Under the pieces are notes generated by a model. That model saw only the letters and a list, made by a program, of their open reading frames with translations. It was not told the DNA's origin and did not search any database. The translations under genes and the position numbers were made by a program. Below are positions 5,842 through 63,312 of a DNA stretch of 64,000 nucleotides, piece after piece (position 1 is the first letter of the stretch; each line of letters starts with the position of its first letter). This stretch comes from Amoebophrya sp. A120 (Eukaryota > Protista > Dinoflagellata), in contig CAJINV010000020.1 of NCBI GenBank assembly GCA_905178155.1, positions 124,001-188,000 of the forward strand, read 5' to 3'.

Positions 5842-8800
5842 TCAAGAAGAGTCTCGCTTTTTCCTTTGTCCAGCACCCTTCCGTCCGGCGTTCGACGTAT
5901 AACCCGCTCAGGTGTTACAATCTCAAACGTTACAATAGAATCTGAGACTTGTCTTGCATGTATGATGAGCATGATCTAGCCAACTCTCATAGGGTTGCGC
6001 ATGACATCAAGTTCCGGAGCTCCAAACCCCACTACAATTTCAATCTGGGGAAATTTGTATTGCAAAAGGTGGAACGCTGTGCGAGTCTGTCATGCCCATC
6101 ATGCAACACAAATTCCAGAATCTATTGCAACGTTTGAGACTGTGACGTTTGAGCAAGTCATACGACGTGCTTTTGCTTTTTCCCCCGGTCTTTTTCGCAG
6201 GCTGCTTGATCTTCCCGTTCCCAGCTGTCTTCGCAGTTTTAGTACCTTGCTTGCCCGTCGCACCAGCAGATCCGACAAGAGCGACCTTCGTTTTTTTCAT
6301 TCCCTTTGATGACATCACACCAGCAGCGGTTTGCTCTTTCTTTGCCACTACGCCCGTCTTCGCGTGCTTGGTTGAACCGGAGCCGCCGGAGCTTTTCTTA
6401 TTCGCAATCTTTTTCATCGTGGTTGCAGTTCGGCTAGATGTAGTAGTGGTAGAGGTTTTCTTCCTGGAGGTTTTCTTGCTGCCCTTCTTCACAACAACCT
6501 TCTTCACCGCGTTGGAGCTGCTGTTCTTCATCGCCGCGCTTTTCATCGCCTTTCCGGCTTTCTTCTTGGCCTTCGCGTCCGCCACGGGCCCACCGTCCTT
6601 CGTGTTCTTCTTTCCCTTGGAGGTGCCCGCTCCTGCAGCGGCCTGCTTCTTGGTCTGCTGCAGATGCTTCGGCAACTTTTCCCGCAGGTGCAGCGGCCAG
6701 GACGCGACGAACTCCGGACGCATAGAGGAGGCATCAGTGAACATTTCGCTCGCGTCTTTTATTCTCGCGACATTCCACTTGTTCAAATCCTGCGCAAATG
6801 CACTGCAACCTTCGAACATGCCAGACATAGTTGTCGCCTTCGCGGTATTCCAGGACTCCAGCGGTTGGTTGAAAAGTTGGCAAGTGTAAAATATGTGCGA
6901 AAAGTCTGTCGCTCCGGAGACATCCCAACCGCTTATGTCCTGATTGAACGAATGGAAGTGCATGAAAAGGAACGCCAGGTCTGCGATTTTCGAGCAGTCC
7001 CAAATCCGCAGGGGGCCGTAGATCTGCTCGATTTCTTCCCGGGTCTGGTTCAACTTCGCGAGCACCTTCGGGGTGTCGTCGTTGTCCGCATTTTCATAAT
7101 AGTCACTCGGCGTGTGCCAGCCTTCGGAAGCTCCGCCGTCCGGATTCGAAATGTGAAACTCACCCATTCCGAACCCGGTGCCCCACTCACTCGTATGTAA
7201 CGCACCGCTGCCGCACGGGCTAAGGAGTTCCGTGTGGTAATCCTCGCTGCAGACGACCATGAGTGCCTTGTGCAAGGCGCGCTTGTTTTCGAAGGGTTCA
7301 AACGTCTTCACGGAGTACGAGAGCTTTTCCGCAAGAAACTTCGAACTGCTGTCCAGCAAATGCGCATCGGAGTGTACAAGGCACTTACCCGCGGCGGGTT
7401 GGACGCCAGGAGGAGTCGCTTGGTGGTCTCCTTTATGAATTGCAAATATGACTGGGTTTGCTTAAGCGCACTGTTTGTCTTTGTGGTCATGCACGACATT
7501 TCGCATGAGCAATGATCTTTGTGGTGTGTGCTCTAGCATCACAGGTTTTCTGAAGGCTTATTGATGCTTGCCCCGCATGCCAGATGCCCCGTCAGCGTAG
7601 CAAGAAATGAAGTTCTGTTGCTGCCCACGCAATACAGATTTTTCTCGCATCCAGAGGCAGCATCACAAGATGGTAATGTTTCAGACCAGGACATTATATT
7701 TGCATTTGATATCCTTGTTCGTTCTGAACCTGACCTGCCTCCTTCTCGTCGACAAACAGTTGCACTTGCTCCCATTGCACCTCCCGCCCCGAGGCGGAAA
7801 CGTGGGCTTTCTGCGCCCGAAACGCGTTCGCGATGAGCTGCTGCACGTCCTTCACCGTAATGGTGGGCGAGCCAGCGGTGTTGCAGATCGTCCGTAGGTC
7901 GATTTCAACCGCGCACTCCGGTCCGGACAGGGCGCTCGGGATCTTCACGGAGGTTTTCTTGTTGCTCTTCTCTAACACAGCAACCTTTTTCATCGCGTTG
8001 GAGCCGCTGCAGCTCGCCGCTGCGCTTTTCATCGCCTTTCCGGCTTTCTTCTCCGCGTGCGCGCTCCCGCCCGTCACCGGCGCGTCGGCTTCGCTGTCCT
8101 TCGTGTTTTTTTTCCCCTTGGCGTCCGCTCCTGCAGCGGCTTCCTCCGCAGCCTGCTGCAGGTGCTTTGGCAACTTTTTCTGCAGGCGCAGTGGCCAGGA
8201 AGCGACGAACTCCGGACGCATACTCTTGCAGGCGTCGTCGAAAACTTTTCCGCTATCATGAAACGCCGTACCACTCGCCTTCACCTTGGACAAGTCCCAC
8301 GAGTTCAGGTCCTGCGCGAAGGCGTTGCACTTGCGGAGCATCCACTGCATATCTGTTACATTCCTGGTGTCCCACGAGCCCAGCGGCTGGTTGAAGACGG
8401 TGCACCCGACGAACATGCAGAACATGCTTGTCACGTTCCTGGTGTCCCACGAGCCCAGCGACTGGCTGAAGGCTTCGCACCCCTCGAAGACACCACTCAT
8501 GTCTTTGACTCTCCCCGTGTCCCACGAGCCCAGCGGCTGGTTGAAGGCCTTGCACCAACGGAACATGCCACCCATGTCTTCGACATTCCTGGTGTCCCAC
8601 GAGTCCAGCGGCTGGTTGAAGGCGTAGCACAACTCGAACATATCACGCATGTCTTTGACTTTCCCCGTGTCCCACGAGCCCAACGGCTGGTTGAAGGCGG
8701 CACACCCCGCAAACATTGCGTTCATGTTTACGGCCTTCGACGTGTCCCAGGCATCTACGAGCTGGTTGAATTTAGCACAATTGCTAAACATATCATGGAA

Positions 8801-9454
8801 ATCGCAGGCACCGCTAACGTCCCAGCCCGAGATATCCCGATTGAACGTGGGGAAATGAGTGAAAAGCAAAGCCAAGCTTTCTACGCGAGAGCAGTCCCAA
8901 ATCCGCAGGGGTCCGTACCGCCCTTCGATCTCCTTCGCTGTTGTTTGCTCCATCACGTGCGCCAGAATCTCCTCATCACGGAGTCTTTCCTCATCCTCAG
9001 GATCAAACCCAGACGGGGTGCGAAAGTGGTCTTGTTCGTCATCTTCATGAAACATGTCCCAGTGGTAGTCCACGCTGCAGATCACCATGAGCGCTTTGTG
9101 CAGTGTGCGCTTGTCTTGGAAGGCCTCAAACGTTTTCACGAAGTACGCGACGTCGTCGGGAAATTCCTGCAAATTCGTCGGAAGCTCGTGGTCGTCAGCC
9201 AGATTCTCGCCGCTGTCGGTCACGATTTGCACTTGCTCCCACTGCACCGGGCGGCCGGTCGGCGATGCGCCGGCCTTCTGCTCTTTAAAAGTTGCCGCAA
9301 TCTGTTCCTTTAATTCTTTCACCGAAATAACCTTTTTGAGCACCAGGGACGGGGAAAGCACCACTTCCACCGCGCAATCAGGTCCCGAAAGCAAATTCGG
9401 GATCTTTAGTACGGCCTTCGAAGTCTCCGGAGGAGACAGGGACGACTTCGACAT
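5842..9454 (-). CDS. Chimeric double DUF285/BspA-like protein (paralog 2; two units fused)
   Basis: ORFs 7694-9454 and 6040-7359 plus a short last exon join in frame after removing 7434-7711 and 5898-6162 plus one DR each (3060 nt, 1020 codons, stop at 5842-5844). 25-aa FNQPLGSWDT repeats. Confidence 0.75.
5898..6162. mobile_element. TIR introner family B
   Basis: TATAACCCGCTCAGGTGTTACAATCTCAAACGTTACAATAGA...TCTATTGCAACGTTTGAGACTGTGACGTTTGAGCAAGTCATA; perfect DR CGACG. Confidence 0.9.
7434..7711. mobile_element. TIR introner family A (same insertion as 4472-4746, co-duplicated)
   Basis: Near-identical to 4472-4746, same DR TCCTT at the homologous codon. Confidence 0.9.
8330..8830. repeat. 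75-nt coding tandem repeats (DUF285 units)
   Basis: GTGTCCCACGAG(C/T)CCA(G/A)CG recurs every 75 nt; same array at ~10790-11270. Confidence 0.9.
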
Positions 9455-9994
9455 ACTTTATTTTTCGCGTGAACTTTTTCTAAAGATCGCGCAACAAGTT
9501 TCTACCTACTAATTCGCTTGTCAGAACTCTTCAAATTTTTCTTGCGAAGTGTACATTCTGCTTTGTGCAGCTGCCGCTGCCCGGCTCCTGCCAGTCTCTC
9601 ATACAAGAAGAGAAAAAGCAACCGCAAGTCTAAGGTCAACTACACAGCCTCGATTATTACGCTTCACCTTTATGTTTATCTTGAGTCACGACAACATTGT
9701 TGAGAATAAGAAAAGCACGCGGCTGTCCTTTTTGTGTGGATTCATTCAACACTATCTTTTCTATCACACAGAACAACATCCTTCAGGGAATATGTGACAG
9801 GGACAAGACAACTGACACTCTTACGTGCGTCATCTTGGCAAAAAAAAATCCGCCAAATGGAGTACTTATAGCGACCCTGCAACAATTTAAACTAGAGGCA
9901 CACGCTCACGCACAGGCAGTGGTATAATCATTTGAAGTTTCAGTTCACACCATACTTCACAGCGACGACAACCATGATCATTCTCGACTGGATC

Positions 9995-10490: not shown

Positions 10491-10549
10491 TCTTCTCCGC
10501 ATGCGCCTTCGCGCGCGTTACCGGTGCGTCGGGTTCGCTGTCCTTCGTG

Positions 10550-12173
10550 TTAGTTTTTCTTCCCCTTGGCACCCGCTCCTGCAGCGGCTTCCTCCACAGT
10601 CTGCTGCAGGCGCTGTGGCAACTTTTTCTGCAGGCGCCGTGGCCAGGACGCGACGAACTCCGGACGCATACTCTTGCAGGCGGCGTCGAAAACTTTTCCG
10701 CTATCATGAAACGACTTCACCTTGGACAAGTCCCACGAGTTCAGGTCCTGCGCGAAGGCGTTGCACTTGCAGAGCATCCACTGTATATCTGTTACATTCC
10801 TGGTGTCCCACGAGCCCAGCGGCTGGTTGAAGACGGTGCACCCGACGAACATGCTGCTCACGCTTGTCACATTCCTGGTGTCCCACGAGCCCAACGACTG
10901 GTTGAAGGCTTTGCACCCCTCGAAGACACTAGTCATGTTTTTGACTCTCCCCGTGTCCCACGAGCCCAGCGGCTGGTTGAAAGCCTTGCACTCACAGAAC
11001 ATGCGACCCATGTTCTCGACATTCCTGGTGTCCCACGAGTCCAGCGGCTGGTTGAAGACGTCGCACAACTCGAACATACCACGCATGTCTTCGACTTTCC
11101 CCGTGTCCCACAAGCCCAACGGCTGGTTGAAGGCGGTACACAGGGAAAACATCCTGTTCATGTTCACGGCCTTCGACGTGTCCCAGGCATCTAGGGGCTG
11201 GTTGAATTTATAACACTCCCTAAACATATCATGGAAATCGGAGGCACCGCTAACGTCCCAGCCCGAGATATCCCGATTGAACGTGAGGAAATCAGTGAAG
11301 AGCAAAGCCAGGCTTTCTACGCGAGAGCAGTCCCAAATCCGCAGGGGTCCGTACCGCCCTTCGATCTCCTTAGCTGTTGTCTGCTCCATGACGTGCGCCA
11401 GAATCTCCCCCGTGCTCTGCTGTAGTCCTTCTTCAGGATCAAACCCAGACGGGGTGCGAAAGTGGTCTTGTTCGTCATCTTCATCAAACATGTCCTGCGC
11501 ATCCAGGTAGTAGTCCTCGCTGCAGATCACCATGAGCGCTTTGCTCAGTGCGCGCTTGTCCTCGAAGGCCTCGAACGTTTTCACAAAGTACGCGACGTCG
11601 TCGGGAAATTCCAGCAAATTCGTTGGAAGCTCGTGGTCGTTGGCCAGAGTCTCACCGCTGTCGGCCAACACGATTTGCACCTGCTCCCACTGTATGCATT
11701 GCAAACGTGTCTGGGTCTGAAAGAACATTGCATAGACTTTTATATGCTCTACTGACAGGAAAGAGAGATCTGTACATGCATGTTGAGCTACCTAGCTATT
11801 TCGTTTCTGTAATGCAAAAACGCAGTTTCTCATGCAGTTTGCGCTAGACCTAGTCGCTCAGAAACTTGTCATGCGCGCCCCCATATCGGAGGTTGCTTAT
11901 GCTTCGCAAATTTGCATCGCGATCAACTCTACAGACCCAGACATATTTGCAATGCATACACTGCACCGGGCGGCCGGTCGGCGATGCGTGGGCTTTCTGC
12001 TCTTTAAACGTTGCCGCGATCTGTTCCTTCAGTTCCTTTACCGACATAACATTTTTGAGCACCAAGGACGGCGAAAGCACTACTTCGACCGCGCAATCAG
12101 GCCCCGAAAGCAAGTTCGGGATCTTTAGCACGGCCTTCGAAGTATCCGGAGGGGACAAGGACGACTTCGACAT
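10550..12173 (-). CDS. DUF285/BspA-like protein, paralog 3 (tail truncated by early stop)
   Basis: ORFs 11850-12173 and 10550-11728 join (PVQ|WEQVQ) after removing 11693-11958 plus one DR (451 codons). A 4-nt insertion relative to paralog 2 creates the stop after GKKN. Confidence 0.8.
11693..11958. mobile_element. TIR introner family A
   Basis: TATGCATTGCAAACGTGTCTGGGTCTG...CAGACCCAGACATATTTGCAATGCATA; perfect DR CACTG; empty site with a single CACTG at 9240-9244. Confidence 0.95.
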
Positions 12174-15600: not shown

Positions 15601-18600
15601 AAGTCGGAGTCGCTCTCCGAATCTTCCGACGACGAGGAAAATTCGTGCTTCGAACTACGGGCGCTCCTGCTGGAAAGAACGTCGTGCTTGCTTGTTGTAG
15701 TTCCGGCTTTAACGATGGATGCACTCGTCGCTCTTCCCCTAGTACCCACTCTACCACTGTTCTTCTTGCTTCCACCATTTCTGGTCGTCTTCTTCGATGC
15801 TTTTGCGCGGTACTTGACGCGCAACAGCTTCCCCGGGATTTTCGCGGCGCCGCGCTTCATCAGAAAAAAGCGGATCAGTTCCTGTTCGTAGCAAAGCTCG
15901 TAATCTACCTTGAGCAACTCAAGAAATTGCGCGATCAGGCTCACTGCGATTTCGGCAAGGCCCAATTGGTGCTCGGGGGCTAGGGTGCTTCTATTCGAAT
16001 CAGTGCAGGACACGAGAGAATCCACAACCTGGAACAACAGGGGGAAGTTTCGCAACCAGCAGGTCTGCCAGTCACACACGAGCGAATTCGAGAGCCACTC
16101 AAGGGCCAGTCTGCGCGCAGGAAGTCCTGCGTCGTGGGGAAGCAGGGAAAGAACGGGATTTTTTTCGGAAGAAGAAGGATTTAGTACTCCCGTAGTTGCT
16201 AGCGATGCTGCTGCGCCGCCTTTTTGGTGAAAATCGTCGTGACCTGCGACCATGAGCTGGCGTGCTGTAGCGATGACGGCACTTTCGACGAATAGTTGTG
16301 TGATATTTTTCGTGGTCGCGGTTGGAATCTCTGTGTCTTTCTTTGTGCCTTCGGTTATACTATCAGGACCGCGTCGCTGAAGCTTCTGCGGTAAATTCAG
16401 AACCTCCTGCTCCTGTGCCAATAACATGGATTCGTAAAACCGAATCGTAGCTACGACGTAAACCGCCTCTCGCGTTGAGCGATCCGGAAACCAGGGCGGA
16501 ATCTCCTCGCTATCCCGTACAAGTAGGCTGCTTCCAGAAACAAACTCTTTGACTAACAGACCGGCCAAGTTCAAATCGCTTTCCACAAATCGAATAAAAG
16601 CCTCTGCTGTCTGCTGCATTTTACCCGCAGGGGACGACGTTGTGTCTTTTCCTTTTCCCTGCTGCAATTCCTTCTTATTTTCCTCGGTCATCAGCGCGTC
16701 TAAATCGAAGCTTGCTTGGTGCTTCAGCGGAACCGGGCTCTTCTTGTTCGGGGCCTTTGAAAGAACCCCGGCGGAGGTTCTCGACGCAGTAGTAGCAGTT
16801 CCGAGCAAAACGATCTTCGCTTCTTGCTCCGCCGACAACGGCTGCACTTCGCTGGCCAGAATCGCCTTTACGTCCGAAGCGCTCGGCCGCTTTGGCAAGT
16901 CAACAGCGGATGGCGACTGTACCCCGTTCATCTTCTCATCGACCAGTGATGTATTTTGGCCCGCCGCAACCGCGCCTGCTTCTCCCGTACTAGCCTGCTC
17001 TACTAGCGCAGGCGGTTGCATTGCGGTCAGCAGTTTCCCTTGCAGGTTGTGGAAATCCAGCAGCCAGGCCACGGAAAGGAGCGCCTTCACCAAGGGCAAG
17101 CCGGTTATCAGCATTTGGATTTGGTGCGCACCGTCATTACCATTCCAAACTCGCCAAGTATGGATTGCAAAAATGTCTGGGTCTGGAGTGTAATGCTGGT
17201 CTTGCATTCCAATTCCTGTGAAATCTGTATTGCGTGACCAAGAACAGTGGTGGCTCCTTATGTCCTCATACAAAAACGCAGAGTCTCATGCGGAGTTCGT
17301 ATGAGAAGGCGTGCTGTAATCTTGTCATGCTTTCCTACATAAGGAAGTGAATTCCTCTTGCACATTTTAGCATCACAAATTTCCAGACCCAGACATCTTT
17401 ACATTTCGTACCAAGTGAGACACTGCAACATGGGTTCCACCAGCCACTCGCGGTGCCCGATGGCCTCACGCAGCGTCTCGTTGCCGCTCTGCTGCAGGGC
17501 CTTCTGCTCCGCGTGGCGCTTTTTCACCTCCTCCAGGTCATTGTTATCGCTGCTGCTTGCCAGCGACGACACCGCGTGCATGATGTAGATGGAATCCGTC
17601 TCCTTGCTGCTTTGCACCGCTGCGGCGCGCCCGTGCCCGCTCTTCGATGTCACCGTGCTGGCCATCGCGCGGACGGGAACCAGCTGCTGGCTCGCACCAT
17701 GCAGCACGTTCGTTGTTCCAGTCGCCCCTGCGTTTGTACCGCGCACGCTGCCAGTAGTCCTGCCGTTTGTAGTGCCATCTGGTCCATTTCCTGGTACACC
17801 GCTACCATAGTTCAGCTGTTGCGCGGCCCCCGCCGCCGTCTTGAGCCTTTTCGACGATCGGTGGTCGTGGTGGTGCCCAGACAAAGCATTATTTTTGTAG
17901 CTTTCTAAACCGCTCCCCGCGTTCTGCCCGCCCGACACGCCGGAGCGAGCGGCCTCGGACGCGAGACCCATGAACGGCGTCACGCCCACACTGGACTCCG
18001 CCTCCTTCTTGACTGTCTGCTTCTGCAGCAAGGAACGCACTATACACTGCAAACATGTGGTCTGAATCAGGAAAGCTGCAAATTTCTCATGCTGCCATTG
18101 AATTCTACGAAAATTTGTGTTGTATGAACAGCACGCAAGTTGATTTCGCTGCACAACTACAAGACGGCATTTCTCATGCGAGGTAGGCATCACGAAGCTC
18201 CCGGCAACTCTGTGATGTTACGGCATACATCACAGACGTTGTGCGTTAGGTAGAAAGTGCATGACAAATTTCTGCATTTGCGAGAGGACTACATGTTTGC
18301 ATTAGATACGCACGCGCTCGTCCGGCGTGATCCGCTCCGACACCCGCTGTTTTGCCTCCAACTCGTTATATTGCGTCAAATTCGCGGTGTTCAGCTTCAA
18401 AGTCGATGTACGGTTTTGCTGCTGCTGCGAGGTGGATCCGTGCGCCTGCCGCGCCAGTTGTGAATGTCCTCCTCCTCCTGCATGGAGACTGCGACTCCCG
18501 TGTTCGCTGTCCAGGAACGACAAGTGCCCGTCGTCCGAAAGGCGCTCACGGTCCTCCTCCTCGAAGGGAAGAGCAACTTCCTGCCCGATGTCGTCGACGT

Positions 18601-49000: not shown

Positions 49001-52000
49001 GGGGGATACGGACCCTTCCTTGACTAGCGAGCTGTTCGAGGGGTACACGCACTGCACGAGCAGTATCCTGTGCAAAAGTATCGCACTCGTAGTAATTGCA
49101 ATCATGCATTACAAATAATTTTCTTAAGGTGAATCCGCATTACAAATTCATTTCTAATGCTGAGGAAATTTGTGATGCATTTATACAAGTACGATACTTT
49201 TGCAATGCATAAGCAGGACGTTGTGACGGTACTTGGGGAACTCCTGCAAAAACGTCTTCCACATCCGCAGCTTCAGCATCACGCCGGCCAGCGCGTCGCA
49301 CCGGTCCAGACCCGCGAAGATGGTCTGGTGCGGGTACTGCTCGCGGAGCGACAGCAGTAATTTCAGGTGCCGGCTCTTTCGCCGCGTGCTGGCCGTCGCG
49401 GGGGTCGGCAGGTGGCGGAACGTCGCCATGGACTGTGACCGTCCCAGCGCGACCGGCCCGGCCGCGCCGCCGGACATCAGCGTCCCGTCGCGCAGCAGGC
49501 TGCCGCCCTGGCTGCAAAGCGAGGACGCGGAGCTGCTGCTGGGCAGCATGGCAATGTACTGGTTGGGCACGGTCACGTGGAAGTTGTTCCCGCGCACGTT
49601 GCCGAGCAGCGTGTTCGCGCGGCGGAGCGGCTCGGGCGAGGCGGTCCCCGAGGACTTGCTCAGGTCGTTCTGCGGCGACAGCGCCTCCGCAACGTCCTCC
49701 TCGGCGATCTTGGGCAGTGTGTGCCCGTTTTCGCTTACGGGGATAGACGACCGCTCACTACTGCGGCTGCAGTGGTCCAGGACGGACGACTTGCGCTCGG
49801 GCAGACCGTATGCATTGGTGCAAAAGTATAATCGCACAACTAGTAAAGTATACGTCGCATCACAAATTTTTCCAAGAAAAGAATTATGCGATTTGTCATG
49901 CTGATTTCCCTTAGTTGATAAAATTTGTCGTGCAAGACGGCGATTAGTACGACGACGTGTACGATATTTTTGCACTGCATAGCCCGCATCGCGGCGAGTC
50001 CTCCAATTCGTACTCTACCGAGGCCCGCGCGGGGGCGGAACTTGTCAATTCGTCTGGGGACAGGGAGTGCGAGTCCGTCGCGCTCCACTCGTCCTCTGCG
50101 AGCGGCGTCTATGCAAGAAAAAGATACTCGTGTAAGTGGTAAGTCTGTAGTGCAGAAAAAGCAATCCAATCACACTTGTCATGCCAGACAGCCAGAAAGT
50201 CCCCTGCTTTTGATATGCGTTAGCGTTTTCACGCACTAGTCATTTTATCTAATATGCAGAGCATCAAATTTGTCATGCTGTCAGCATTCCACGAGTTACA
50301 CGACTACCACAGGTTTTTTTCCGGATAGCGTCTGCTGCACTTGCACCGCCTTTCCGTCCGGTACGCTTTGTTCCTGCTCCTCGTCAGTGCTGCTCCTACT
50401 CGCCGTAATCCGGTCGGAAGTCGCGACAATGCCGGCGGTGTTGGCCGGCGCGATATTAGCCGTAGTTGTACTACTGGTGCCAGCACCAGCTGCCGAGGTA
50501 GACTTAGCGGGTGCGGCCACACCACAAGATGATGTTTTGTTCCCCACAGCACTCGCGACCGTGGTCCCGGCGACCACTCCATCCTCGATCGCAGCTGCGG
50601 ACTTGCTCTCTAGCTTTCGCTTCTCCTCATCTGCCTCCAGAGCCGCTTTCAGATCAACGAGGTTGTTCGCTGCCTGCGCCACCTCGTGCACGTTCACCAT
50701 CACGTGACTCACCTTGATCATCACCTGCCGTCCATGGTAGTCCACCGCCATCTGTCCCGAGGGGAGAAACTGGTAGTCGAGGCCGACGATGCGCTTCACC
50801 GTGACGAAAAATTTCCGCACATACTCGAAAAACTGGAACCTGGGTTAAAGATAGAGGATTCTCAATGGTATATTGAAATTCTCGCCTGCTTCCTGTTCAT
50901 GTTTATGATCACCCACGAGTTATTTCTTGCTGTACTTATCCCCAGCCCCACGCCTAAGCGGTAGAAGTTTGAAAGTTTTCTTCTCGCGTACTACAGTAGC
51001 TCGAGAGCACGACAAAAAGCGGCCAATTACCCGATCAAATCGGCGCACAGCATGGCCCGCAGCAGCTCCTCCCGCACCGCGAGGCAGCGGAAGATGTCGC
51101 TGCTGGGAAAGGGCGTGTGGAGATACAGGCCGATGTTCGCCTTCCGAATCTTGCGCGTCAGGTACTGCGGCAGCAGGAGCAGGTGGTAGTCCTGGATCCA
51201 AAAAAAGTCTGTGTGGTGCGAGGTGCGGATGATGACGTCTGCGAAGCACAAATTGATGCGCTGGTAGGACACCCACAGGTCCTCCAGCGTGCTGTGTGCG
51301 CGGTTCGGCGAGGGACTGCCCCACGTGCCATTCTCCGATGCGCCGCTGTGGTTTAGCCGCACCACCTCGTGCAGGATGGGCCACAGGATCTGCTGGCAAA
51401 AATTCATATAGTTGTCGAATTCCTCGCGCGGAAGAAACACCGGAATGCAGTCGTACTGGAAAAGCAGGTCAGACACCTGATTTTGAATGCATTTTTCATT
51501 TATTCCGTGCGTTAATGTTGTCTGTTCAACTTGCCGAAAGAACTTAAGAGCGATCATGCACAACCATTCCTAACTGTTCGAAACGGCGAGCAAGCGCTTC
51601 ATTCGCCTGCGTGCTGAAGAGTTCTTTTTATTCTGGAAACACCTTTAGCTTGTTGATCGACCAAAGCTACAGCAAGCACCTGTCTTTTCTCGTACTCGGA
51701 CTCGATGTGCACGCCGGGCCAGCCGACGCAGAGCAGCCTGAACCGTGCTTTCTATCAAGTGCAAAAGTGTCTAGGTCTGGAAGAGTGAAACTTGCAATTA
51801 TGCTGTCTACGGATTCTAAAAATATCTGTGTTGCATGAGCAGGAAGAGGAGTCAGTTCCTGGCACGCGGAGAGGGCATTTGTCATGCGTATATTAGCATC
51901 AAGAAGGTCTCAAAAACTCTGTGATGCTAGCACCAGCATAACAGACCTGATGCGTCATGCAAAATGTGCACGACAAGTCCCGACTCTTCCAGACCCAGAT

Positions 52001-54528
52001 ATTTTTACAGTTGATACTTTCCCCGCGCGCACATTTTGGTGCAACGTCGGAATCAGGTTCGCTTTCGACTCCGTCACCGCCCACGTGCCCTCCTTGGTCT
52101 TCGTGACCTTTATCAAATGTAAAAATGTCTGGGTCTGGAAGAATGCAACTTGTAATGCGTATTTCAGAACACAGAAAAGTCTCTCATGCATACGTAGCAA
52201 AAGCTCCCACTTTTTGCCAGCAAAATAGGGGACTTGTCATGCGGATTCGGCATTGCGGAAGGTTCTCGAAACCTGTCATGCTAGAGCTTCCATGCCAGAC
52301 CTTCTGTGTCATGCAAAAACAGCATGACTCTTCCAGACCCAGACATTTTTACAATTGATAACCTTGAGCGGCAGCTGAAACGCGATCACCATCACGGTGT
52401 CGCCCGGTCCGAGGTCCGCGTCGTCGTTTTCCTCCTTCAGTTTTTGCAAGATCGGATCGTCGTTCCAGAGATCGCCCTCGTTCAGGTCAAACCCGTCCTC
52501 GTTCTCGAAATTACCCTCGACCGACGAGAGCCGCCCGTCTTCCGAGTGATTTACGTGGGTATTGCCCCGGTGAATCACCGGCGCGGACCCCGCCGGCTGC
52601 AGGGAACGCAACATGCCGCCCTGGGTAGCAGCTGTGCTGCCATGGTTGTACCTACTTCTGCTGGTGGGGTGAAACTGCTGTGTGGCAGCTGCCCCATAGC
52701 TCTGCTGGTTCAAGCTGTAACTCGACGGCCCTTGTGATCCTGCCGAGGAAAAACCTCCGCCGAACGTTGTTCTGTGCAGCGGCCCAGCTCCGAACGACGT
52801 AGTTCCACCCCGCAGCTTGCTGCTGCTTAGGCTGTGCTGGTTATGCAGTCCTCTTATGCCACTTCTTGCGGTTGAGCTGTTGCCCGCCGCCGTGTGGAGC
52901 CCTGCTAAAGTAGTAGAACTGCCAGTAGACGCAGAAGTCGCGTTTCCGAAGCCAAGAAGCTGCTGTCCTGGCTTGTTGGCATTCATATTTCTTGGCTGCA
53001 TATTATTGTTGCCCGCCTGATTCGTGCGCACTCCCAAAGCACTACTCTTGAGCGGCTTGAGTTGCGTTCGTCCGTTCCCCACGGCCATATGCACCAAGTG
53101 GTATGAGCCGTCGAGCTGATCGAACACCGGCTCGGGGCTGTGGCCCCGGGCTGGGTCGTCGTCTGTCGTTGGCGCGCTGTCGCAGCTGCTCGCCCGCGCT
53201 GCCGCGGTTGTGGCACTCGAGGACGCGGCGCGCGATCGAGGCGGCTCGGTGCTGGCCTCGGAGGTGCGACAGAGCGGGTGGGTTCCTGTTAACTTCGCGT
53301 CCGGCTGCTCTACTGCGGTCAGCAACTTGGAAAAGTTCCGGAACCACCCCTCGTCATCCTCCACCGTCATCTCTTGCCCGCTCGGCCGCAGCGTGTACCG
53401 GTGCGCATCCAGCCACCTCACCCGAGTCACTTTCATTTCCGAGTCATCGCTGTTGTTCTCAGGAACACGGTCTTGAAGATGTTGAAACGTGCTGCTTGTA
53501 CTAGCTGCTGCTGCGCTCGATGTAGTGGCACGACCAGCTTCACCACACATCACTCTCCGACTCGCGTCTGTCGTAGACGAAATACCGCTGCCACCGCTGT
53601 TCCCATCCTGCCGCGTCTGCTCTTCACGAAGACCGTTGACAGCCTGATTTCCACCCGGCGTGCAGGTTGATCCCGTACTACTCCCCGGGACGAGGTCCTC
53701 ACGGCCGCGCGAGGATCCGAAAAAGGAATTCCACACGGACGCAAGGAAACCCGGGTCGCTGCCCCCGTCCGCTGCAACCGCGTCGGAACCCGGGGAGGCG
53801 GAACAATGCTCGCTTGTTTTGGGCACGGCCTCCTCCACAATGTATTGGTATTCTACCCTGTGGAGCGTGTAGTTTTACTCCAGAATGCAGATGATACCAT
53901 CTTTCCATTATCGCACCCAGGCTAAATGTGCTGGTGGCGTCGTCCAACTGTTGTCCTACTTACATCAGCAACCCATGCAAAGTAATGCAGATGAGTACCA
54001 GGTATACTTCAATATTGTCGTGCCACCAGCCCCTATCGATCAACAGCAGAATAACGAGAAACGAAGGCAGAGCAAGTGCTAACGATGAATTTGAATACAC
54101 TCGAAGCGCACCACAAGCTGAGAAGACAGAAACAAATACGTTTCGCCCAGCGGCAAATGCACGGGATCGTTGCTGATCCAGCACGGGAAATAGTTTGGGT
54201 TGGTGTGGAGCTCGAGTGCGAGGTCCGGGTCCCACGATCCCAACTGCGGCGTGGACCCGACCAGCTTCACGCGCACGTTTTGGCTCTCTTCGTACTTGAA
54301 GCGGAAAAAGCATCTTGTGGTTGGCAACCGCGAGGAAGAGCTGCTGGTCTGCGGGATTGCAGCACCCCCAGAAGCTGTCGGTGACGCCTGGGCGGTCGGC
54401 GTCGTCGCGGCAGTTCCCGGGGCGGTCCCGAATGCCAACGCAGTGTAGGAACTCTGGCCGCCCGGTGTAGTGGCAGTCTCATCCGCCGACCCAACCGGAG
54501 AGGGCTGCTGCTGCACAACCACCTGCAT
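46036..54528 (-). CDS. CBM20-containing trehalose-6-phosphate synthase/phosphatase (GT20 + HAD phosphatase)
   Basis: CBM20 (KLVGSTPQLGSWDP); CVGWPG, FWIQDYHLLLLP, LYLHTPFPSS, RDGLNL, ILSEFTG, FFDNEGTL, CIGDDRSDEDMF, TVGQKPSKAKY; 8 TIR elements plus conventional introns; ends approximate. Confidence 0.9.
47724..48004. mobile_element. TIR introner family H (degenerate)
   Basis: TATCATCTGAGAAAAACTGCC...GCAGTTTTTCCACGTTCATA; DR 3/5; frame restored. Confidence 0.7.
48433..48708. mobile_element. TIR introner family A
   Basis: DR CGTTC; removal gives ALYRN|ANVLLDTQVRDGLNL. Confidence 0.9.
48834..49008. mobile_element. TIR introner family G
   Basis: TATCAAATGGAAAAAAGCAGGCAGG...CCTGCCTGCTTTTTTCTGGGGGATA; DR CGGAC. 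Confidence 0.85.
49064..49211. mobile_element. TIR introner family F
   Basis: TATCCTGTGCAAAAGTATCGCAC...GTACGATACTTTTGCAATGCATA; DR AGCAG; removal gives NVLL|VQCVYP. Confidence 0.85.
49809..49981. mobile_element. TIR introner family F
   Basis: TATGCATTGGTGCAAAAGTATAATCGCAC...GTACGATATTTTTGCACTGCATA; DR GACCG/GCCCG. Confidence 0.85.
50110..50327. mobile_element. TIR introner family E
   Basis: TATGCAAGAAAAAG...CACAGGTTTTTTTCCGGATA; DR GCGTC. Confidence 0.8.
51753..52016. mobile_element. TIR introner family A
   Basis: DR CTTTC; removal gives AGK|ARFRLLCVGWPG; interior homologous to 3453-3836. Confidence 0.9.
52111..52360. mobile_element. TIR introner family A
   Basis: Family A TIRs; DR ACCTT (AAGGT on the sense strand). 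Confidence 0.95.
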
Positions 54529-55403: not shown

Positions 55404-58400
55404 TCACTCCGTTCCGCTGACGAGGCAGCCCATGTTTTTTGCGACGGTGAGGACGGAATTCCAGTGCGGGTCTTCGGCCAGCAGGTTGGAAAACGCGCCA
55501 ATTACCACCATGCCGTCCTGCGCGCGGCTCAGCGCCACGTTCAACCGCTTTTCGTCCCGGAGAAACCCGATGGCCGCCGTGCGCACGCAAGAGATGATGA
55601 TCACGCGCTTCTCGCTGCCCTGAAAGTACTCTGCGGTACCCACTTCAATGTCGCCGAGGTACACCTCCCCGCTCTCGGAGAGGTTCATCAACTTCTGCTG
55701 GATCCACTTCACCTACGGTATGGAAGAAAAATTGGAAAAAACTGCTTCACCGTGTGCAATTAAGTAGGTTCAAAAGCAGGGGATTCAAAAACGGAAATTT
55801 CGAATGAGTCAAAGACTGCTTTTTAGTCTGCTTCGCCGATTATGGTGCAAAAAAGGACACTCACACTTCATGTTTCATGCTTATTCTGCTCCAGCAAAGA
55901 GCTCGCGTCGCATATTTTTACACGTACTTATGCCGGACTCGTCACATGGACCGCCGTGGTGCAAAATTTTCGTCACAGTGAAGCCGGGCGTTTTTCATAC
56001 GATATGAGCGTCGTAGAACGTGATCACACCAATATCATGAGGAAAAATGCCCCCTCCCCATATCGAAACGAAGTGTCTGATGCTGGATTTCCATACACAA
56101 ATCAGCTTTGTCTTGCAGTGGAGGAATGCAGGCATATGGCAAGCCTCAGCCGAGAGGTTTTGACGTAGGCGCCTAGCATGACAAACGTGCATGCTCTGAG
56201 CCAAACAGCATCACAAACCGCCTGAAAAATGCGAAACGCTTTCTGGACTTGCCTTCTTGCAAGACAGACAGGATTTGAGGTCACAAATGCGCATCACAAA
56301 TTTTCAGACGGATACGTTTTCGATATGGGGAGGGGGGATTTTTCCTTTTGATAACCAATGTCCTTGGTGCGGACATGCTGCGTTACCTCGTGGAGAACGT
56401 ATGAAACCAAAAATTTGGATTTGTAGAATGCAGTTCATCGTGCCATCGCTTCGCCGGCCTTCTTACGTCATGCACAGGAAAATTTTCCTCGTTCCTTGTA
56501 AAAGTTTTGCTCCACAGGGTCAAGTCGAATTACCTTATCTATGTATTCCAGAACAAAAAGCGCAAACCAGAAGCGGCAAACCAGAAGTAGCGGCAAAAAT
56601 GACAGTCACTGCAATCACGAACCCCCAAAGAACTCCCTCTGCGTACGATGTACTCGCAAACCAGGTGCGCCTCCAGCTGGTTGATGTAGCTCTGCTGTAC
56701 TTTTTCCTCCTTATGGCTCTGCTCCTCCCCGCCCAGGTCATGGAATAGTGCGGGCTGGCCGGTGGCGCGAAACCGCACGACGGTCTTCTCTCGGTCGGAC
56801 ATGGGTTTCAGCAGATTGCCGTAAAACACGTTCCACAGCCGGGTCAAGTCCGGGTGCGACCGGAAGGTCTTCGTCAGGAAGTAGATCTTTTCGTTCACCT
56901 GCGCCGGGGGGCCACCGCGAGCTGCAGATGAAACACTCGCGTTCAGCCGCAGCAGTTCCCGGCGGCGATGTTCCGCGCGGATACGCTCGGAGGCCAGGCG
57001 CTCCAGCATGCTGATGTTCAGCTGCAGCTGCTCGGCCTGCTGCTCTATCAAATGCAAATATGTCTGGGTCTGGAAACTTGTAATGCTGAGTGACGTAGTA
57101 AGTATGTCGTAGAGGCCACAGATGATAGCTCAGCATGACAAGCTTCTGAGCTTCTAAGTGTTGCCCATTCTGCGTGACAACCTGCGCTTCTGCATCACAG
57201 AAAAATAAGGCTTTTGGGTAACGTGCATGACAGACTTAAGGGTCTTGCTAGCCTAGCATGACAAACCTTGCACTTTTCCAGACCCAGACATATTTGCGCT
57301 GGATATGCTCCAGCACCGTCGGCCGCAGCTGCTTGTGGTCCCCGCACAGCACCACCCGGGCCCGGCGGGGGTTCAGCGCCAGCGGCACGTAGGCGTCGGG
57401 CTCCGTGCACTGCCCGGCCTCGTCCACGATGACCAGGTCGGGCACGAACACCACCGGGTTGATGGCCTTTTTTGCCGCCGAGTCGAAGAACGTGGGAAGG
57501 TTTCCCGCGGCGGTCGCCGTGGTCACCAGGACCCGGTGCGTGCTTTTGATGTCGTAACTGTCGCACGTGCTGTACTGGAGCATCATGCTGTGCTATCGAA
57601 AGAAAAAAGTTCGCCATAGTCAACTCAAGAAGCTGCAGGATTTGCATCACAAATTCTTCTACGCATCACAGCTTTTGCTTGTCTTGCACAACCACAAGGG
57701 AACCCCCGTATGACTACATTCGACTGTGATGCATGGCTAGTACGCATGACAGACAATTTTGTATTGCAACAGTGCGCATTGGTGATCGTGACGAACTTTT
57801 TCCTTTTGAATATGTGCCGCACGCACTCCTCCTTCTGCGCGAGCTCGTCCTCGCTCGGGTTTGCAGGGTCCAGCATGTCCGGTATCTCCGGAAAGTGGGT
57901 CTCCAGGTAGTGCTGGCGGGCGCGCGAGTTGACGCGGATCAGGTCCTTGGTCTGCAGACCGATCTTCTTCGCCAGTCCGACCAGCAGCAGGTCCGCGGCC
58001 TTGTTGGAGGGCGCGCACACCATCACCTTCACGTCGGGTAGGTGCTTCAGCACCTTCCACAGCGCGCACAGCAGCGTGAACGACTTGCCCGTCCCCGGCG
58101 GACCCCAGACCAGCATGGGGTTGCCGAAGCTGCAGTCCTCGGACAGGACACCCTGCACCACCTCCAGCTGCTCCGGATTCAGGCACGCGCGCAGGTTGTC
58201 GCAGATCGCGTCGCGGCACTGCTGCAGGGTCAGCGCGATTTTCCGGCTCACCTGCAGCTGCTCGTACTTCTCCAAATCTGTCAGCTCGGGTGGTTGGCTA
58301 GGGGTCGTCGTGTCCTCCTCAGTCATCTCGGGGTTCTTGCCCTGGCTGTCCGTGTTTTCATGCTCATCTGCAGGGTCAAAAGCGTCGGCGTTCGCGCCTC

Positions 58401-60550
58401 GCTCACCTACACTCCGCGGCGTTCCCTCCAGTAGAGATCCGGATGAAGACCGCTGGTGTACCTCTTCTTCCTCCGTCGCACCAGTACTACTCGCACCACG
58501 TCGACTGGAACCATCATTGTGAAGGAGCTGCTCTTTCTTCGACGCATCCGCTTTGCGCGACGAGGAACCTTTCTGGTGCCAGTCCTCGGGCGCGCAGTCT
58601 ATGGCGATGTGCCGCTTGCGCCACTGGCCGCGGGGCACGACGAAATCGACCAGCACATCCTTCCGCCCGCGCAAGTGGTGGCAGTCCCCCACCCCCTCCA
58701 GCCACAGCGTGACGGTGCCCGCGGGTTTTTCGTTTTCCACCGCATCGAGTAAAACGGCGCCGGTGGGCGTCAGATTGCGCGGCACCCGGACCGGCACGTT
58801 GCCCTCCATGTCGCTCAACTTCTGGATGGCCAGTTGCTCCCGCACCGCGGCGTCCGCGAGGGACGTCAGACTGCTGGGCCCGAAGGACGTGGCCCCAGCT
58901 CCGGCGGCTTGCTCAGCGTCATCGGTACCGCTTTGCGACGTCAAGGAATCTTCATCTGTAGTAGAAGAAGCTGTGCCTTCATCTTCTGTGCTAGGGGGTA
59001 GTCGCGCTGCACTAGACTCCTGTAATTGCTCCGCGCGTCTTCGCGTCGCCACGGTCGTGGACTCTAGCGTGCGGACGAAGTCGCGCCATTCCGGCGTTTG
59101 GCTCCACACCCGCACTATGCAAGAAAAAAACTGTGTAAGTGTAACTCTGTAATGCAGAACATGCCAGAGAGTTACGCCTCTCATGCCAGACACGCACAAA
59201 GTCCTCTTTCCATGTGTGTTTTCCCTTACCAGCCACGCATGACAGGTTTTCTCTACCATGTAGAGCAAATCTGTGATGCTGTTAGCCAAAGAAAGTTACA
59301 CTAACACAGTTTTTTTCTTGGATACGCACCTGGATCTTCTCGATCTCGCCCCGCTTGCCCTCCTTCACGTCCTGCGCCCGCGCGTGGCCGCTGGAGGTGA
59401 CTTTCCCGCCGAAATTCCGCGCGTCCAGTGCGCGCGGCTCGCGCAGCCGGCTCTGCGCCACGATCTTGCCCAGCACCGACGGCGCGACCGCCACCGCCTG
59501 CCCGCCGCGCACCTGCTTGTCGCCGTCCTCCGTGTTTTTAGCGTCGGTCGTCTCCAGCCGCCCGGCCTCCTCCTGGACGTGCTGCAACAGCCGCTTTTCC
59601 ACGTCGGACACGTACCCGGCCCGCGCATCGAGTGCAAAAATGTCTTTGCGTCTGGAAACGTGCGACCTTGTGAGGCGTTTTGCTGAAGATCATGATCAGA
59701 TTCACTTTCACACAAGAAACATCTGCCTTCCATCGGTTGCAAAAGATGCCCGATTCTGGCCATCCTGAGCAAGGACTTCTCGTGCAGAATTCTAGGACTT
59801 GCCAACGGACTGGAGACCTCCCTGATGTAACGACTCTAAAACCCTGCAACACGACCCCAAACCGCTCTGCGTGGGGTGGCAGTGTGTCAATGTGATGAAA
59901 GAACTGCATGACAAACAACTTCGGCGGACGATGTTCCATACCCAGACACTTTTTTCCACTGAATACAGCCGCACCTTGAGCGAATTCGTCTCGGCGTCCA
60001 CGTGGATCACGCGCGCCCGCATGGTGTTCAGCCTCTCGTCGATCGTCTTCTGCTGCGCACTTTCGTCCACCCAGATCGCCTCGTGCCACCGCCGCTTCAC
60101 CATCTCGCGCCACCGCAGCGTCCCCCGAGCCTCCCGCAACCGCACCTGGTGTGCCGAGGGACCCAGGTGCAGGTACTCCAGCGGAAGCAGGTACTTGTTC
60201 TGCGCAATCCCCGCGAGGGGCTGGTGCGAATCTTTTTCTTTCGTAACTTCTGGACCGGCGTCCCTGTCTTGATTCTGGTGTGGGCTCCTGCGAAGGTACA
60301 ATTCATGACTACTAGTTGTAGTAGAGCCCGTGCTGGTCGTGTCAGTTGAACGAGAGGAAGACGAAGGTGAGTTCCCAGTGTACGTCGGTGTCGGGGCACT
60401 TTTCGTAGCTGCGGTGGTCGGCCCCGTCGTGGTGCGCAGGTATGCCGCAGTCGACGGCGCGGTACCAGCATGTGGCTGCGGGTATCTGCTCAGCTTTGGT
60501 GCCGCCGCGCTACTAGAGGACGAGAAGAAACACGAGCGACAACGCTTCAT
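55404..60550 (-). CDS. Superfamily 1 RNA helicase, Upf1/MOV10-like
   Basis: VWGPPGTGKS, VCAPSNKAAD, IVDEAGQ, LCGDHKQL, FRSHP, IGVITFY, GTAEYFQGSEK, RLNVALSRA; in frame after removing 7 insertions (~1078 codons). Confidence 0.88.
55714..56004. mobile_element. Atypical TA-bounded TIR insertion without a usable 5-nt DR
   Basis: TACGGTATG...CATACGATA ends plus a GCTTCAC(C/T)GTG inverted match; exact removal gives YDAQVKW. Confidence 0.6.
56033..56353. mobile_element. TIR introner family I
   Basis: TATCATGAGGAAAAATGCCCCCTCCCCATATCGAAA...TTTCGATATGGGGAGGGGGGATTTTTCCTTTTGATA; DR ACCAA; removal gives KDIG|VITFY. Confidence 0.9.
56400..56645. other. Non-canonical intron, possibly a highly degenerate introner
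   Basis: TA at both ends, weak TIR, only a CGT overlap; removal gives CEYI|VLHE. Confidence 0.5.
57046..57305. mobile_element. TIR introner family A
   Basis: DR TGCTC; removal gives PTVLE|QQAEQ. Confidence 0.9.
57594..57812. mobile_element. TIR introner family J
   Basis: TATCGAAAGAAAAAAGTTCG...CGAACTTTTTCCTTTTGAATA; DR TGTGC. Confidence 0.85.
59116..59324. mobile_element. TIR introner family E
   Basis: TATGCAAGAAAAAAACTGTGTAAGTGTAAC...GTTACACTAACACAGTTTTTTTCTTGGATA; DR CGCAC. Confidence 0.92.
59626..59965. mobile_element. TIR introner family A (degenerate; left end CA instead of TA)
   Basis: CATCGAGTGCAAAAATGTCT...CCCAGACACTTTTTTCCACTGAATA; DR 3/5; removal gives KVRL|AGYVSD. Confidence 0.75.
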
Positions 60551-60870
60551 CTTCTGGATAATTTACTTCTTACGTGAGACGAGCGGGAAAGATTTGTAAA
60601 TAATATCGACCTTGCTCTAGTAGCAAAACCCGAGGACTCGCCGCGTTTTCTGTCTATTGAGAAGCGACTCCGTGTTGATTATATCCCAGAATCACTTCTT
60701 GCCGAAAGAGACATGCGACTGCAGATGGCTTGCTAGAGCCGGTCTCTCATCGCTCATTTCTACGTGCAGCGGCGCACACAAATACCGTATGAATGTGTCC
60801 TTCCACTTGCGAAAAAAAAGACTGCTGCAGCCATCCATGCTGAGCGAAGCTATGTTCGTAGGCAACAATT

Positions 60871-63312
60871 TCAAACAGGATTGCTCAATAGATCGATGTG
60901 TAGATCTACTGCTGGGCGAGCATAAAGGACCATCATAATCGCGTCCAAAAATTCCTTTGCGTTTGTAGACCGTCGACTGAAGGAACTACGAAAGTCTGTT
61001 GAACAAGTGCACTTCGAAAGGTCATCGGGTCTTTCCTGTATCACGTGCTTTCCGCCTGCACAATTCGCGTTCTCGCCGTCCGCAGCCCGAGCACAGGTGC
61101 CTATGCGTTCGCGAAGAAAGAAAGTGATGCGGTCTCGTTCTTCCGCCGCGCGCCGTGAACCACCCGCCTTAGCCGGCATACTTACTTCAGGCCCGCCTCC
61201 TTTTTCGCCTTGGCTGTCGCTCCATTTGTTCGACGAAAAGGTGGTCCTGGCCACCCTGTCTGTCCGCGCCAAACGCCGCCTTTGCGCGGTTCTTTTGGCG
61301 ACCGCTGATTGAGACGGCAGTATTTCCACGTAGTTTCCCCTGATCATCCTCGTCCTCACCGCTGCTCGTACCTCCTTCGGAGCCGAACGATTCTCCGTCC
61401 GAATCTGCTTCCAAGCTGGCTTCGATCATCGCCAGCTGCGCGGCGGTCAGACTGTTCTCATCGTCTTTTATGAGAGTGCAAGAAAACTCGTCCCCCTCAC
61501 TTCCCTATGGATAGGCTATCCATTGTTTGAAATGCGAGAAATGTGGTTTCCGCATGACACTTCTTCCACGCACCGAATAGAGCAGTACTGGTGTTCCCGG
61601 TTCCGCAACTTGTGATGCCAACGGTAAAAGAAGGCCTTGAAGTGGATTTCGATTTGCGATACTTTGCATGACAAGTGAGGGGGAGTCGTGCTCTTTCCTA
61701 TCTTCGTCGTCGAAGTCGATGGCGTTCCCGTCGGCGTCGCAACCGTTGAAGGCGATGAGGTGGGGCAGCGCGGCGAACACCTCCACGCGGCGGTGTTCGT
61801 CGCTTTCGTATCCTATGTAAAAACGTCCCCACCCCATAGTCAAGATGGGGCATTGGCTAGACAAATCCACAAGTTTTGGCTGTCTTGCATGACAGATTTG
61901 GACTCGTAGCGTAGTGCTGTTTGAGCTAGCTCAGCAGCATCACAGACCCTGTATATAATGCTGATTGGAGCATGACAAATTGCAAAACACGATTGGATTT
62001 GGAAAATGCTTCTCATGGGGCTCCGCATGAGAAACAATTTCAGCATGCAGATTTGCAATACAACTATGGCGTGGGGACGTTTTTACATAGGATATTTCGA
62101 ACTCGAGCAGCATGTCGCACTCCAGCACGCGCAACTGCGGGAGTTGCTGAAGGTACGGCGCGATGTCCTGTGCAAAAGAGGTGATATTGACGCAGCGGTC
62201 CACGCTCAGGTGAAATAACCGCGGAAAAGCCTGTTCTTGCGACCCCTCCTGCACCGCCAGAAAATCCAACGTCGTCAAGGGATTGGCAGAAAGGTCAAGA
62301 ACCTGGTGCGCGTCGTGCGGGGTAGGAAAATAAGAATAACGTACGGAAGATGATGTCGAAACTACTTGGATATTGATTTTTTCTTTTTGTAGCAACATTC
62401 TATTATTTCCCGCTCGCGTAGTCTTTCTAGTGGAAGTTATGCTTCCGTCGTAGGATTCCAACTTGCCAGTGCTTTACTTGGAGCAAGAAGCTGTACCAAC
62501 CCGAAACAAAGAGAACAAGATACACAACCCTATCCTGTCATTACCACGAGATTTTCTGCCGCCTCTTCCCAAGCTCGCGGCGGCGCCACTTCCCGTAGAT
62601 GGCAGTTGGTGATGGCCAGAGCACGGAGCTTCGGGCACTTTTTCTTCAGTACGCCCCATTCTGCGAGCGAGTCGTTATGATGGTATGGCACGAGGAATTG
62701 TTGTACCCTATTTCGGCATGATCTACTTCTTCTGTACTCTGATTTAGCTGTTTAAATAAACCAAACGATCGTCCTGGTAATTCAGTGCTAAATCCCTGTG
62801 GTAAGCACCAAATCCAAATGCAGAATGAGTTGTTGCGGACGACACTGATTTTATGCAACCGAGCCAGGTCTTCGTGGTCTTTCGCGGGCAGCAGATTTTC
62901 CCCGTATCCGTACAAACCGTTTCCCCCGCAAATCGACGCTCTCCACGTCCGCAAGCACCGGTGTGTCAGTTCCTTGCTCGAGGCGCAGCAAAGCATGCTC
63001 GCTAAAGAAATACTCGTCAAGAAGCTCGGACAGGGCCCTGGGAAGTTGCTGCTGTAGCATCTTCTCCGGCTGCGCTTCCGGTGCATATGCAGTCCCAGGA
63101 TGAACAGGACGCTGCTGCGCGGCAGTAGTTGCGGCCCGAAGATGTAGATGTTGAACAACCGGATTGTTCATCGGTATTGGCACACCCCTAATATGTTGCG
63201 GCGGCTGCATGTAAGAAGTCCCGGGCGCGAAAGGAGGACGGTGCCCGCTGCTAGAAGATGCCGATGCCTTCCCAAACGGAAATCCACCAGAAACCGCGTT
63301 CTCGCCTCCCAT
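60871..63312 (-). CDS. Leucine-rich-repeat protein with LRRcap-like motif; exon structure and ends uncertain
   Basis: VLDLSANPL, LPQLRVLE, FE|SDEHRRVEVFAALPHLIAFNG; two TIR elements; apparent frameshift near 62920. Confidence 0.55.
61469..61700. mobile_element. TIR introner family D
   Basis: TATGAGAGTGCAAG..TCCCCCTCACTT...AAGTGAGGGGGA..TTCCTA; DR TCTTT/TCTTC; frame restored (DDED|DENSL). Confidence 0.75.
61809..62094. mobile_element. TIR introner family C
   Basis: TATCCTATGTAAAAACGTCCCCAC...GTGGGGACGTTTTTACATAGGATA (perfect 24-nt TIR); DR TTTCG; homologous to 19250-19528. Confidence 0.95.

Follow-up and report, generated by a model that had tools for sequence, protein, structure and literature searches.

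A conserved internal motif shared by introner families of Amoebophrya sp. A120 is a candidate binding site for a common mobilising protein

Why do short elements with dissimilar inverted-repeat ends carry the same internal sequence? The question is raised by a 64-kb stretch of the genome of the dinoflagellate Amoebophrya sp. A120 (GCA_905178155.1, contig CAJINV010000020.1, positions 124,001 to 188,000, forward strand; hereafter the window), in which genes are interrupted by many elements bounded by terminal inverted repeats (TIRs). An earlier sequence-only reading of the window reported that families with different TIRs share the internal sequence TGT(C/G)ATGC (TGTSATGC) in both orientations, and proposed that it is a common site for one trans-acting factor. 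By their sequence features, the elements match published Amoebophrya A120-type introners: they have the same TAT start, looser bases, A-run, short direct repeats, insertion in coding sequence and family lengths. As described in the available text of Farhat et al. (PMC7789003), A120 introners are genic, about 240 nt long, and have inverted repeats consisting of TAT, seven looser bases and at least three A, with direct repeats of 3–5 nt. The same text counts 29,850 introners in 1,954 families, amounting to 17% of the A120 assembly, gives RNA-seq support for their removal from mRNA, and reports U1 small nuclear RNA (snRNA) as undetected and no splice signal common to introners. Family lengths of about 149, 209, 252–260, 278 and 305–321 are given in the part of Gozashti et al. 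2025 (PMC12130899) available to us.

Exact counts over the window gave 49 matches to TGTCATGC/GCATGACA and 28 to TGTGATGC/GCATCACA, a total of 77 TGTSATGC sites, whereas 100 dinucleotide shuffles averaged 4.93, the highest count being 12 and none reaching 77. Elements were identified with a finder that is blind to the motif, relying on ends, target duplication and inverted-repeat score, and that returned no elements in three shuffled windows. It detected 22 elements in the window, spanning 5,496 bp and containing 56 of the 77 exact sites. Addition by eye of 11 decayed elements, partly guided by stray motif hits, brought the total to 33, with 76 of the 77 sites falling in 8,282 bp and one in the remaining 55,718 bp. 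A weight-matrix scan of the window placed 114 of 118 sites inside elements. No matrix site was present in the two 1-kb elements at 20288-21305 and 21376-22419, or in 36600-38440, which the sequence-only reading had called hemE (label unverified). The recurrence of the motif across element families in both orientations, and its rarity elsewhere, were thus correctly noted. The eight bases originally named form the core of the motif but not its full length, which is about 13 bp (approximately AAYYTGTVWTGCA; T0, T2, T5, G6 and C7 nearly invariant), with TGTAATGC, TGTATTGC and TCTCATGC also admitted as variants. An intact element carries about four to seven copies.

The arrangement of the sites is illustrated by a 252-bp TAT..ATA element at 35754..36005, which has a 5-bp target-site duplication (TSD) and six exact sites. 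The five same-strand starts listed previously are all exact, with plus-strand sites at 35795..35802 (offset 41 in the element), 35826..35833 (31 bp further on), 35859..35866 (33 bp beyond the second), 35879..35886 and 35918..35925. A sixth site, at 35965..35972, is inverted (minus strand), with the right end of the element 33 bp away. Same-strand sites prefer a spacing of 31–33 bp: pairs 30–33 bp apart were found in 10.1 of 15 scored groups (weighted), compared with a null mean of 2.3 and a maximum of 6.1 in 300 randomisations. Of the spacings for which multiples of a helical turn were suggested earlier, 31–33 bp has statistical support and recurs across groups, and 20 and 39 bp have none; a general helical periodicity is not supported, since the overall signal (significant, best period 10.5 bp) gave p = 0.107 once distances of 29–34 bp were removed. 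Pairs in divergent orientation are concentrated at 35 bp, and those in convergent orientation at 46–49 bp (a descriptive observation, without statistics). A decayed tandem repeat was considered as the source of the 31–33 bp spacing and rejected, the spacers being only 31% identical (44 pairs).

The sample was extended by a scan for the main TIR, which yielded at least 178 loci (365,708 unique bp) from contigs sharing families at up to 95% identity with those of the window. This sample is partial and biased toward the main family; about 0.43 Mb was searched overall. The motif-blind finder returned 315 further elements from the loci, for a total of 337 with the window. TAT..ATA ends were present in 311 of the 337, these ends being a search criterion with at most one mismatch allowed. 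The longest exact boundary repeat was 5 bp in 284 of the 337 and exactly 6 bp in none. Motif density was practically the same in the elements of the loci (10.35 per kb) and in those of the window (10.19 per kb). Altogether the 337 elements contained 860 motif sites compared with 16 in shuffles, an enrichment of about 50-fold, where the sequence-only reading had named a lack of enrichment over background as evidence against its claim. The main TIR pattern gave no matches in viral contigs, and what looked like a family with a motif site at each tip (locus L026) proved to be two adjacent elements.

After trimming of the TIRs and masking of the motifs, 44 representatives could be sorted into 22 groups between which no interiors aligned above z = 6. 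A site was present in 20 of the 22 groups, and one of the two groups without a site is probably a false element. Common to all groups are the terminal TAT, C or G at position 4 and an A-tract at positions 11–15 (A at positions 11–14 in 74–83% of group ends), while positions 16–30 differ. The description of the families as unrelated was overstated, as they have in common the TAT..ATA ends, the A-tract and 5-bp duplications, together with weak residual similarity (48 of 834 between-group pairs above z = 3). On these sequence comparisons, the families are most readily taken as a single superfamily whose interiors have diverged. In the 210-bp family (for example 59116-59324), TIR positions 11–28 of the two arms change jointly and stay complementary, with 66 complementary and 17 non-complementary double changes (24 copies of 19 types, kinship uncontrolled), a pattern that suggests selection for pairing or copying from arm to arm.

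Comparison of copies with their consensus, in 14 subfamilies with at least seven copies, gave a mismatch of 4.6% in the motif core (360/7,872), 16.0% in the spacers (4,366/27,363) and 9.2% in the TIRs, a 3.5-fold lower rate for the core than for the spacers. Trees were constructed for 16 subfamilies with at least eight copies, comprising 333 of 370 copies collected by homology; two near-identical duplicates left in the 370-copy set slightly inflate the internal-branch counts. On tip branches, the core showed 3.57% changes and the spacers 9.66% (ratio 0.37). On internal branches the values were 0.45% and 2.83% (ratio 0.16; contrast with tips, Fisher p = 6e-9). Context-matched ratios were similar (0.39 for tips, 0.17 for internal branches), and the internal ratio was lower than the tip ratio in 14 of the 16 subfamilies. 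The terminal TAT changed at 0.20% on internal branches and 3.57% on tips, intact ends being partly a selection criterion. Site positions are fixed across subfamilies despite diverged spacers. The motif is retained much as the ends of the element are, chiefly on lineages giving rise to further copies. Tip branches mix post-insertion decay with unsampled rounds of transposition, and their rates do not isolate post-insertion selection.

The host strand could be called for 207 of the 337 elements, with calls agreeing in 162 of 181 pairs from one locus; in the window 18 elements were called, all of them minus. Orientation relative to the transcript was balanced (90:77, p = 0.35, 167 subfamily-assigned copies), and a family with its exact sites distributed 55:0 on one strand inserts 9:8. 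Conservation did not depend on the transcribed strand (4.83% and 4.52%, p = 0.61). This independence of strand, in orientation and in conservation, favours recognition of double-stranded DNA and disfavours a signal in single-stranded RNA. The 5′ and 3′ TIR arm profiles of oriented elements are likewise identical in transcript sense, with the arms equally conserved.

We propose, with a probability of roughly 0.6, that the copies of the 13-bp motif in an element form an array at which a single mobilising protein, common to the families, binds double-stranded DNA. The binder would be an integrase-like DDE transposase, of the Ginger or IS3EU/GingerRoot type, or a cofactor, contacting both the tip of the element and the inner sites. 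In support of a contact at the tip, the reverse strand of the motif scores best at tip position 3 (mean −2.75; next best −10.7), and tip positions 3–15 resemble an outward-pointing degenerate motif copy (p = 0.010 against permuted end columns, p = 0.028 against permuted matrices). In one group the tip is a full-strength motif site. Sites three helical turns apart would lie on the same face of the helix, and may help to pair both ends of an element of 110–320 bp before cutting. Lineages that lose sites would stop spreading, while individual copies could decay after insertion. A single shared mobiliser would lead families with different TIRs all to keep the motif. The family-specific part of the TIR (positions 16–30) would have a separate role, possibly in the hairpin proposed for removal from RNA. 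Enrichment, conservation and recurrent spacing thus support, at the level of sequence, the common site for one trans-acting factor that had been suggested; among the roles offered for that factor, mobilisation at the level of DNA is favoured over chromatin or excision from RNA.

Several observations weigh against this proposal. The resemblance of the tip to the motif is modest and is a post hoc observation. The sites nearest the ends face inward in some families but outward in others, at odds with a fixed geometry of the ends, and the orientation of one family is skewed (12:3). Tips of the trees are also protected, with core/spacer ratios of 0.37–0.40. In copies with a damaged TSD the core mismatch rises from 3.1 to 4.6% (+1.6 points) and that of the spacers from 7.8 to 11.4% (+3.6 points); the rise in the core is below the prediction of neutral decay, so constraint after insertion is possible. 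No transposase or other binder was found in the window and loci, where a search for long elements gave no coding element, and the available text of Farhat et al. (PMC7789003) reports that no A120 transposase was found. The only clear long element (L027:105-1208; 1,104 bp, TAT..ATA ends, 5-bp TSD) contains no convincing open reading frame (ORF), as judged from its listed ORFs without a Pfam scan. Its motif sites are clustered near one end, and the remainder is GC-rich and repetitive. Outside element footprints, the exact motif occurs 58 times with 14 expected, and strong sites 40 times with about 5 expected (about 8-fold), 24 of 44 being without an element end nearby. Five outside regions were read, of which three look like decayed elements and two are GT-AG-like introns with little or no TIR. 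Several outside sites lie in such TIR-less GT-AG-like introns; those with an intact motif are at L057:457-567, 1320-1555 and 2465-2608, L022 about 4765-4890, and L043:1731-1890.

Some of these GT-AG-like introns begin with G followed by TAT, as if the element end had become a canonical donor, and L057:457-567 aligns weakly to a 112-bp family. Among plain introns the motif was present in 3 of 29 in the loci and 0 of 7 in the window, small counts that derive from a crude hidden Markov model that merges short exons into long non-coding segments.

The mobiliser array has to be weighed against explanations in which the motif serves the host. A host DNA-binding protein could mark elements for precise co-transcriptional removal, or organise chromatin, so that only marked elements survive in exons; we rank this second and consider it unlikely. 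Strand symmetry suits any DNA-level factor, target sites lack a clear splice-site-like bias, and one trehalose-6-phosphate synthase gene contains eight elements while its pieces still match homologues. The residual protection at tips (G6 changes at only 1.07%), the slower rise of the core in TSD-damaged copies and the sites left intact in introns without a TIR (for example L057:457-567) are also as a host role would have it. On the other hand, constraint is stronger on internal branches, most plain introns are without the motif, and the exonic copies at 3453, 4482 and 48834 retain no more than one matrix site. The motif is no better preserved in exonic than in non-coding copies (core/spacer ratio 0.36 and 0.32; 143 and 23 copies), a weak test in which the TIR positive control also failed. 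In the loci, copies called non-coding seem to be younger than those in exons (tip rate of the spacers 6.8% and 9.8%, 23 and 143 copies), perhaps through faster loss. Candidate pairs of copies at the same site numbered four, of which two were near-identical duplicates, one false and one real; the last differed at 1 of 36 core and 6 of 124 spacer positions and is uninformative.

Readings that place the motif in RNA, or deny it a function, are less probable still. If the elements were copied by way of RNA with the help of a retrotransposon integrase, the sites could act as an internal promoter or as a signal for packaging. The selection on propagating lineages would fit this; the 5-bp TSD and TA..TA ends recall integration of the long-terminal-repeat type, and published A120 family 38 has Copia/Gypsy homology in the portion of its description available. 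This seems improbable given long TIRs instead of direct repeats, sites on both strands in family-specific patterns, and no Rfam match in the window. As a signal in single-stranded RNA, the reverse strand reads GCAUNAC, which resembles the branch-point consensus, 33–45 nt from the end; whichever way they are inserted, main-family elements show GCA..ACA close to the 3′ end of the transcript, and 142 of 207 oriented elements carry both strands' forms. A branch-point-like sense site 18–70 nt before the 3′ end is missing in 79 of the 207, however, and conservation is independent of 3′ position (p = 0.46) as it is of strand. The would-be branch A is kept no better in sense (8.1% and 6.0%), and families with sites on one strand insert in both orientations. 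The absence of the site in those elements and the lack of a strand effect led us to reject the branch-point reading, and a splicing role of any such kind is very doubtful. Mutual pairing of the sites, whether in RNA or in single-stranded DNA, is slightly harder still to credit: some interiors fold better than shuffles (z down to −7.5), but families with mostly one-strand sites fold weakly (z −1.0 to −2.8) and yet keep every site, and the sequence of the sites is the same from family to family instead of covarying, so that this explanation is largely refuted. Least probable is that the motif was passively inherited from a common ancestor and has no function. The common ends and TSD length, and the between-group pairs at z > 3, would suit this reading, but the 3.5-fold lower divergence of the core, the six-fold fewer changes on internal branches (also when context-matched) and the fixed site positions in subfamilies with diverged spacers refute it; ancestry alone without excess conservation, the other outcome that was to count against the motif, is not what the data show.

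The mobiliser array has parallels in known transposons. The bacterial elements Mu and Tn7 make 5-bp duplications and have TG..CA ends, and at each end several sites for the transposase are arranged asymmetrically; by description, the duplication and the multiple sites are alike here, whereas the TG..CA ends and longer sites differ. The motif may also resemble ApiAP2 sites, a likeness for which a literature search gave no matches. In Emigrant/Lemi1, as the consulted text has it, the subterminal repeats, which duplicate a portion of the TIR, are bound by the transposase (PMC1636448); subterminal transposase-binding repeats also occur in CACTA, hAT and Sleeping Beauty (cited in PMC1636448). In both Emigrant/Lemi1 and the present elements, internal repeats in both orientations resemble part of the TIR, and binding to those of Emigrant/Lemi1 is described as arrangement-dependent. 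The present case differs in having one motif across different TIRs and non-alignable interiors, distributed over the whole element with 31–33 bp spacing. IS3EU and GingerRoot, in the text available, have TA..TA termini with TIRs and a TSD of usually 6 bp, the TIRs of GingerRoot being 100–150 bp (PMC10045372, PMC6839031). TA..TA termini with TIRs are found here too, but the TSD is 5 bp and the TIRs are about 30 bp; membership in IS3EU/GingerRoot was rejected on the 6-bp TSD. A120 family 38 is labelled Ginger in the part of the PMC12130899 supplement available to us, with homology to an integrase region, a 5-bp TSD and TA/TA termini. By analogy, the elements probably work like miniature inverted-repeat transposable elements of an integrase-like transposon.

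A shared internal motif, its spacing and its conservation are undescribed in the available text of the A120 introner papers (PMC7789003, PMC12130899), and a search of the accessible PMC12130899 supplement with sequence terms for the motif gave no matches. Wider literature searches likewise turned up no account of such a motif in Amoebophrya introners. The suggestion that the signal may be undescribed thus stands for the text of this literature, and figures S19 and S25 of PMC7789003 could show it. The motif is real and under selection and, within these sources, apparently unreported, and the elements themselves were already known.

In the window, the elements interrupt coding sequence, with consecutive pieces of Pfam domains on either side. 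The CBM20-trehalose-6-phosphate synthase/phosphatase gene (46156-54400, minus strand) has eight elements inside, at 47724..48004, 48433..48708, 48834..49008 (175 bp; no exact and one matrix site), 49064..49211 (150-bp family), 49809..49981 (decayed), 50110..50327 (210-bp type), 51753..52016 and 52111..52360 (both main family). The top three matches of an exon of this gene are Amoebophrya A25 and A120 proteins (72, 57 and 45% identity), with no identical protein among the matches. Cutting out the element plus 5 bp gave the best junction with homologues in five of the eight cases and a tie in one, the other two lying in unconserved sequence. An AAA_11/AAA_12 helicase-like gene (55400-60560, minus strand) has five elements inside, including one at 57594..57812. 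The 5-bp duplication is confirmed by an empty paralogous site for the element at 11693..11958, kept at about 9226-9265. No clear target-site sequence preference or splice-site-like base bias was seen in or around the duplication (175 oriented elements, transcript sense), and removal of the elements appears, from their sequences, to need no fixed dinucleotide.

Further main-family elements lie at 17159..17410, 18041..18308 (diverged), 19907..20168, 27658..27910 (seven matrix sites), 28246..28445 (internally shortened) and 34636..34896, with decayed members at 3453..3836 (internal insertion; no exact and one matrix site), 4482..4746 (homology-based start 4472) and 7434..7711; the last two occupy the same insertion site in paralogous genes. 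The element at 30753..31021 combines the main TIR with a different interior. A different TIR is found at 5898..6162 (two exact, four matrix sites) and, of the same type, at 18956..19211. Members of other families are at 19250..19528 (279-bp family; four exact sites, all on one strand) and 61809..62094 (279-bp), 23741..23908 (150-bp, decayed), 34202..34423 (216-bp), 61469..61700 (decayed, like the 216-bp type), 41055..41278 (210-bp, decayed), 59116..59324 (210-bp) and 56033..56353 (321-bp). The 252-bp family element at 57046..57305 is in the opposite orientation to that at 35754, the host genes of both being on the minus strand. An old decayed element lies at 59626..59965. Beyond the 33, a further decayed 210-bp-type element at 45908-46107 carries a matrix site at 46025.

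At about 2700-12180, paralogous genes on the minus strand stand in tandem; they have lysine-rich tails and contain internal repeats of about 75–78 bp, and the paralogues carry differing sets of elements. The two adjoining 1-kb TIR elements that are without the motif have TAT..ATA ends, an 8-bp duplication and 124-nt arms (20288-21305) and TTA..TAA ends (21376-22419), and both lie within a stretch of about 40 bp repeated three times.

The presence of the motif across introner families suggests one machine rather than thousands of family-specific ones. With its single-base null mutants (T5, G6, C7), it provides a defined bait for pulling down that machine, and a signature by which introners that have decayed, and their autonomous partners, could be sought in the genomes of Syndiniales. 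We also entertain, as a long shot, the bolder idea that one DNA-binding protein recognises the 13-bp motif, in whichever orientation, as a code on introners in their tens of thousands, both mobilising them and flagging them for precise removal independent of splice sites. If so, intron definition in this lineage would be written at the level of DNA, replacing the U1 snRNA that has been reported as undetected.

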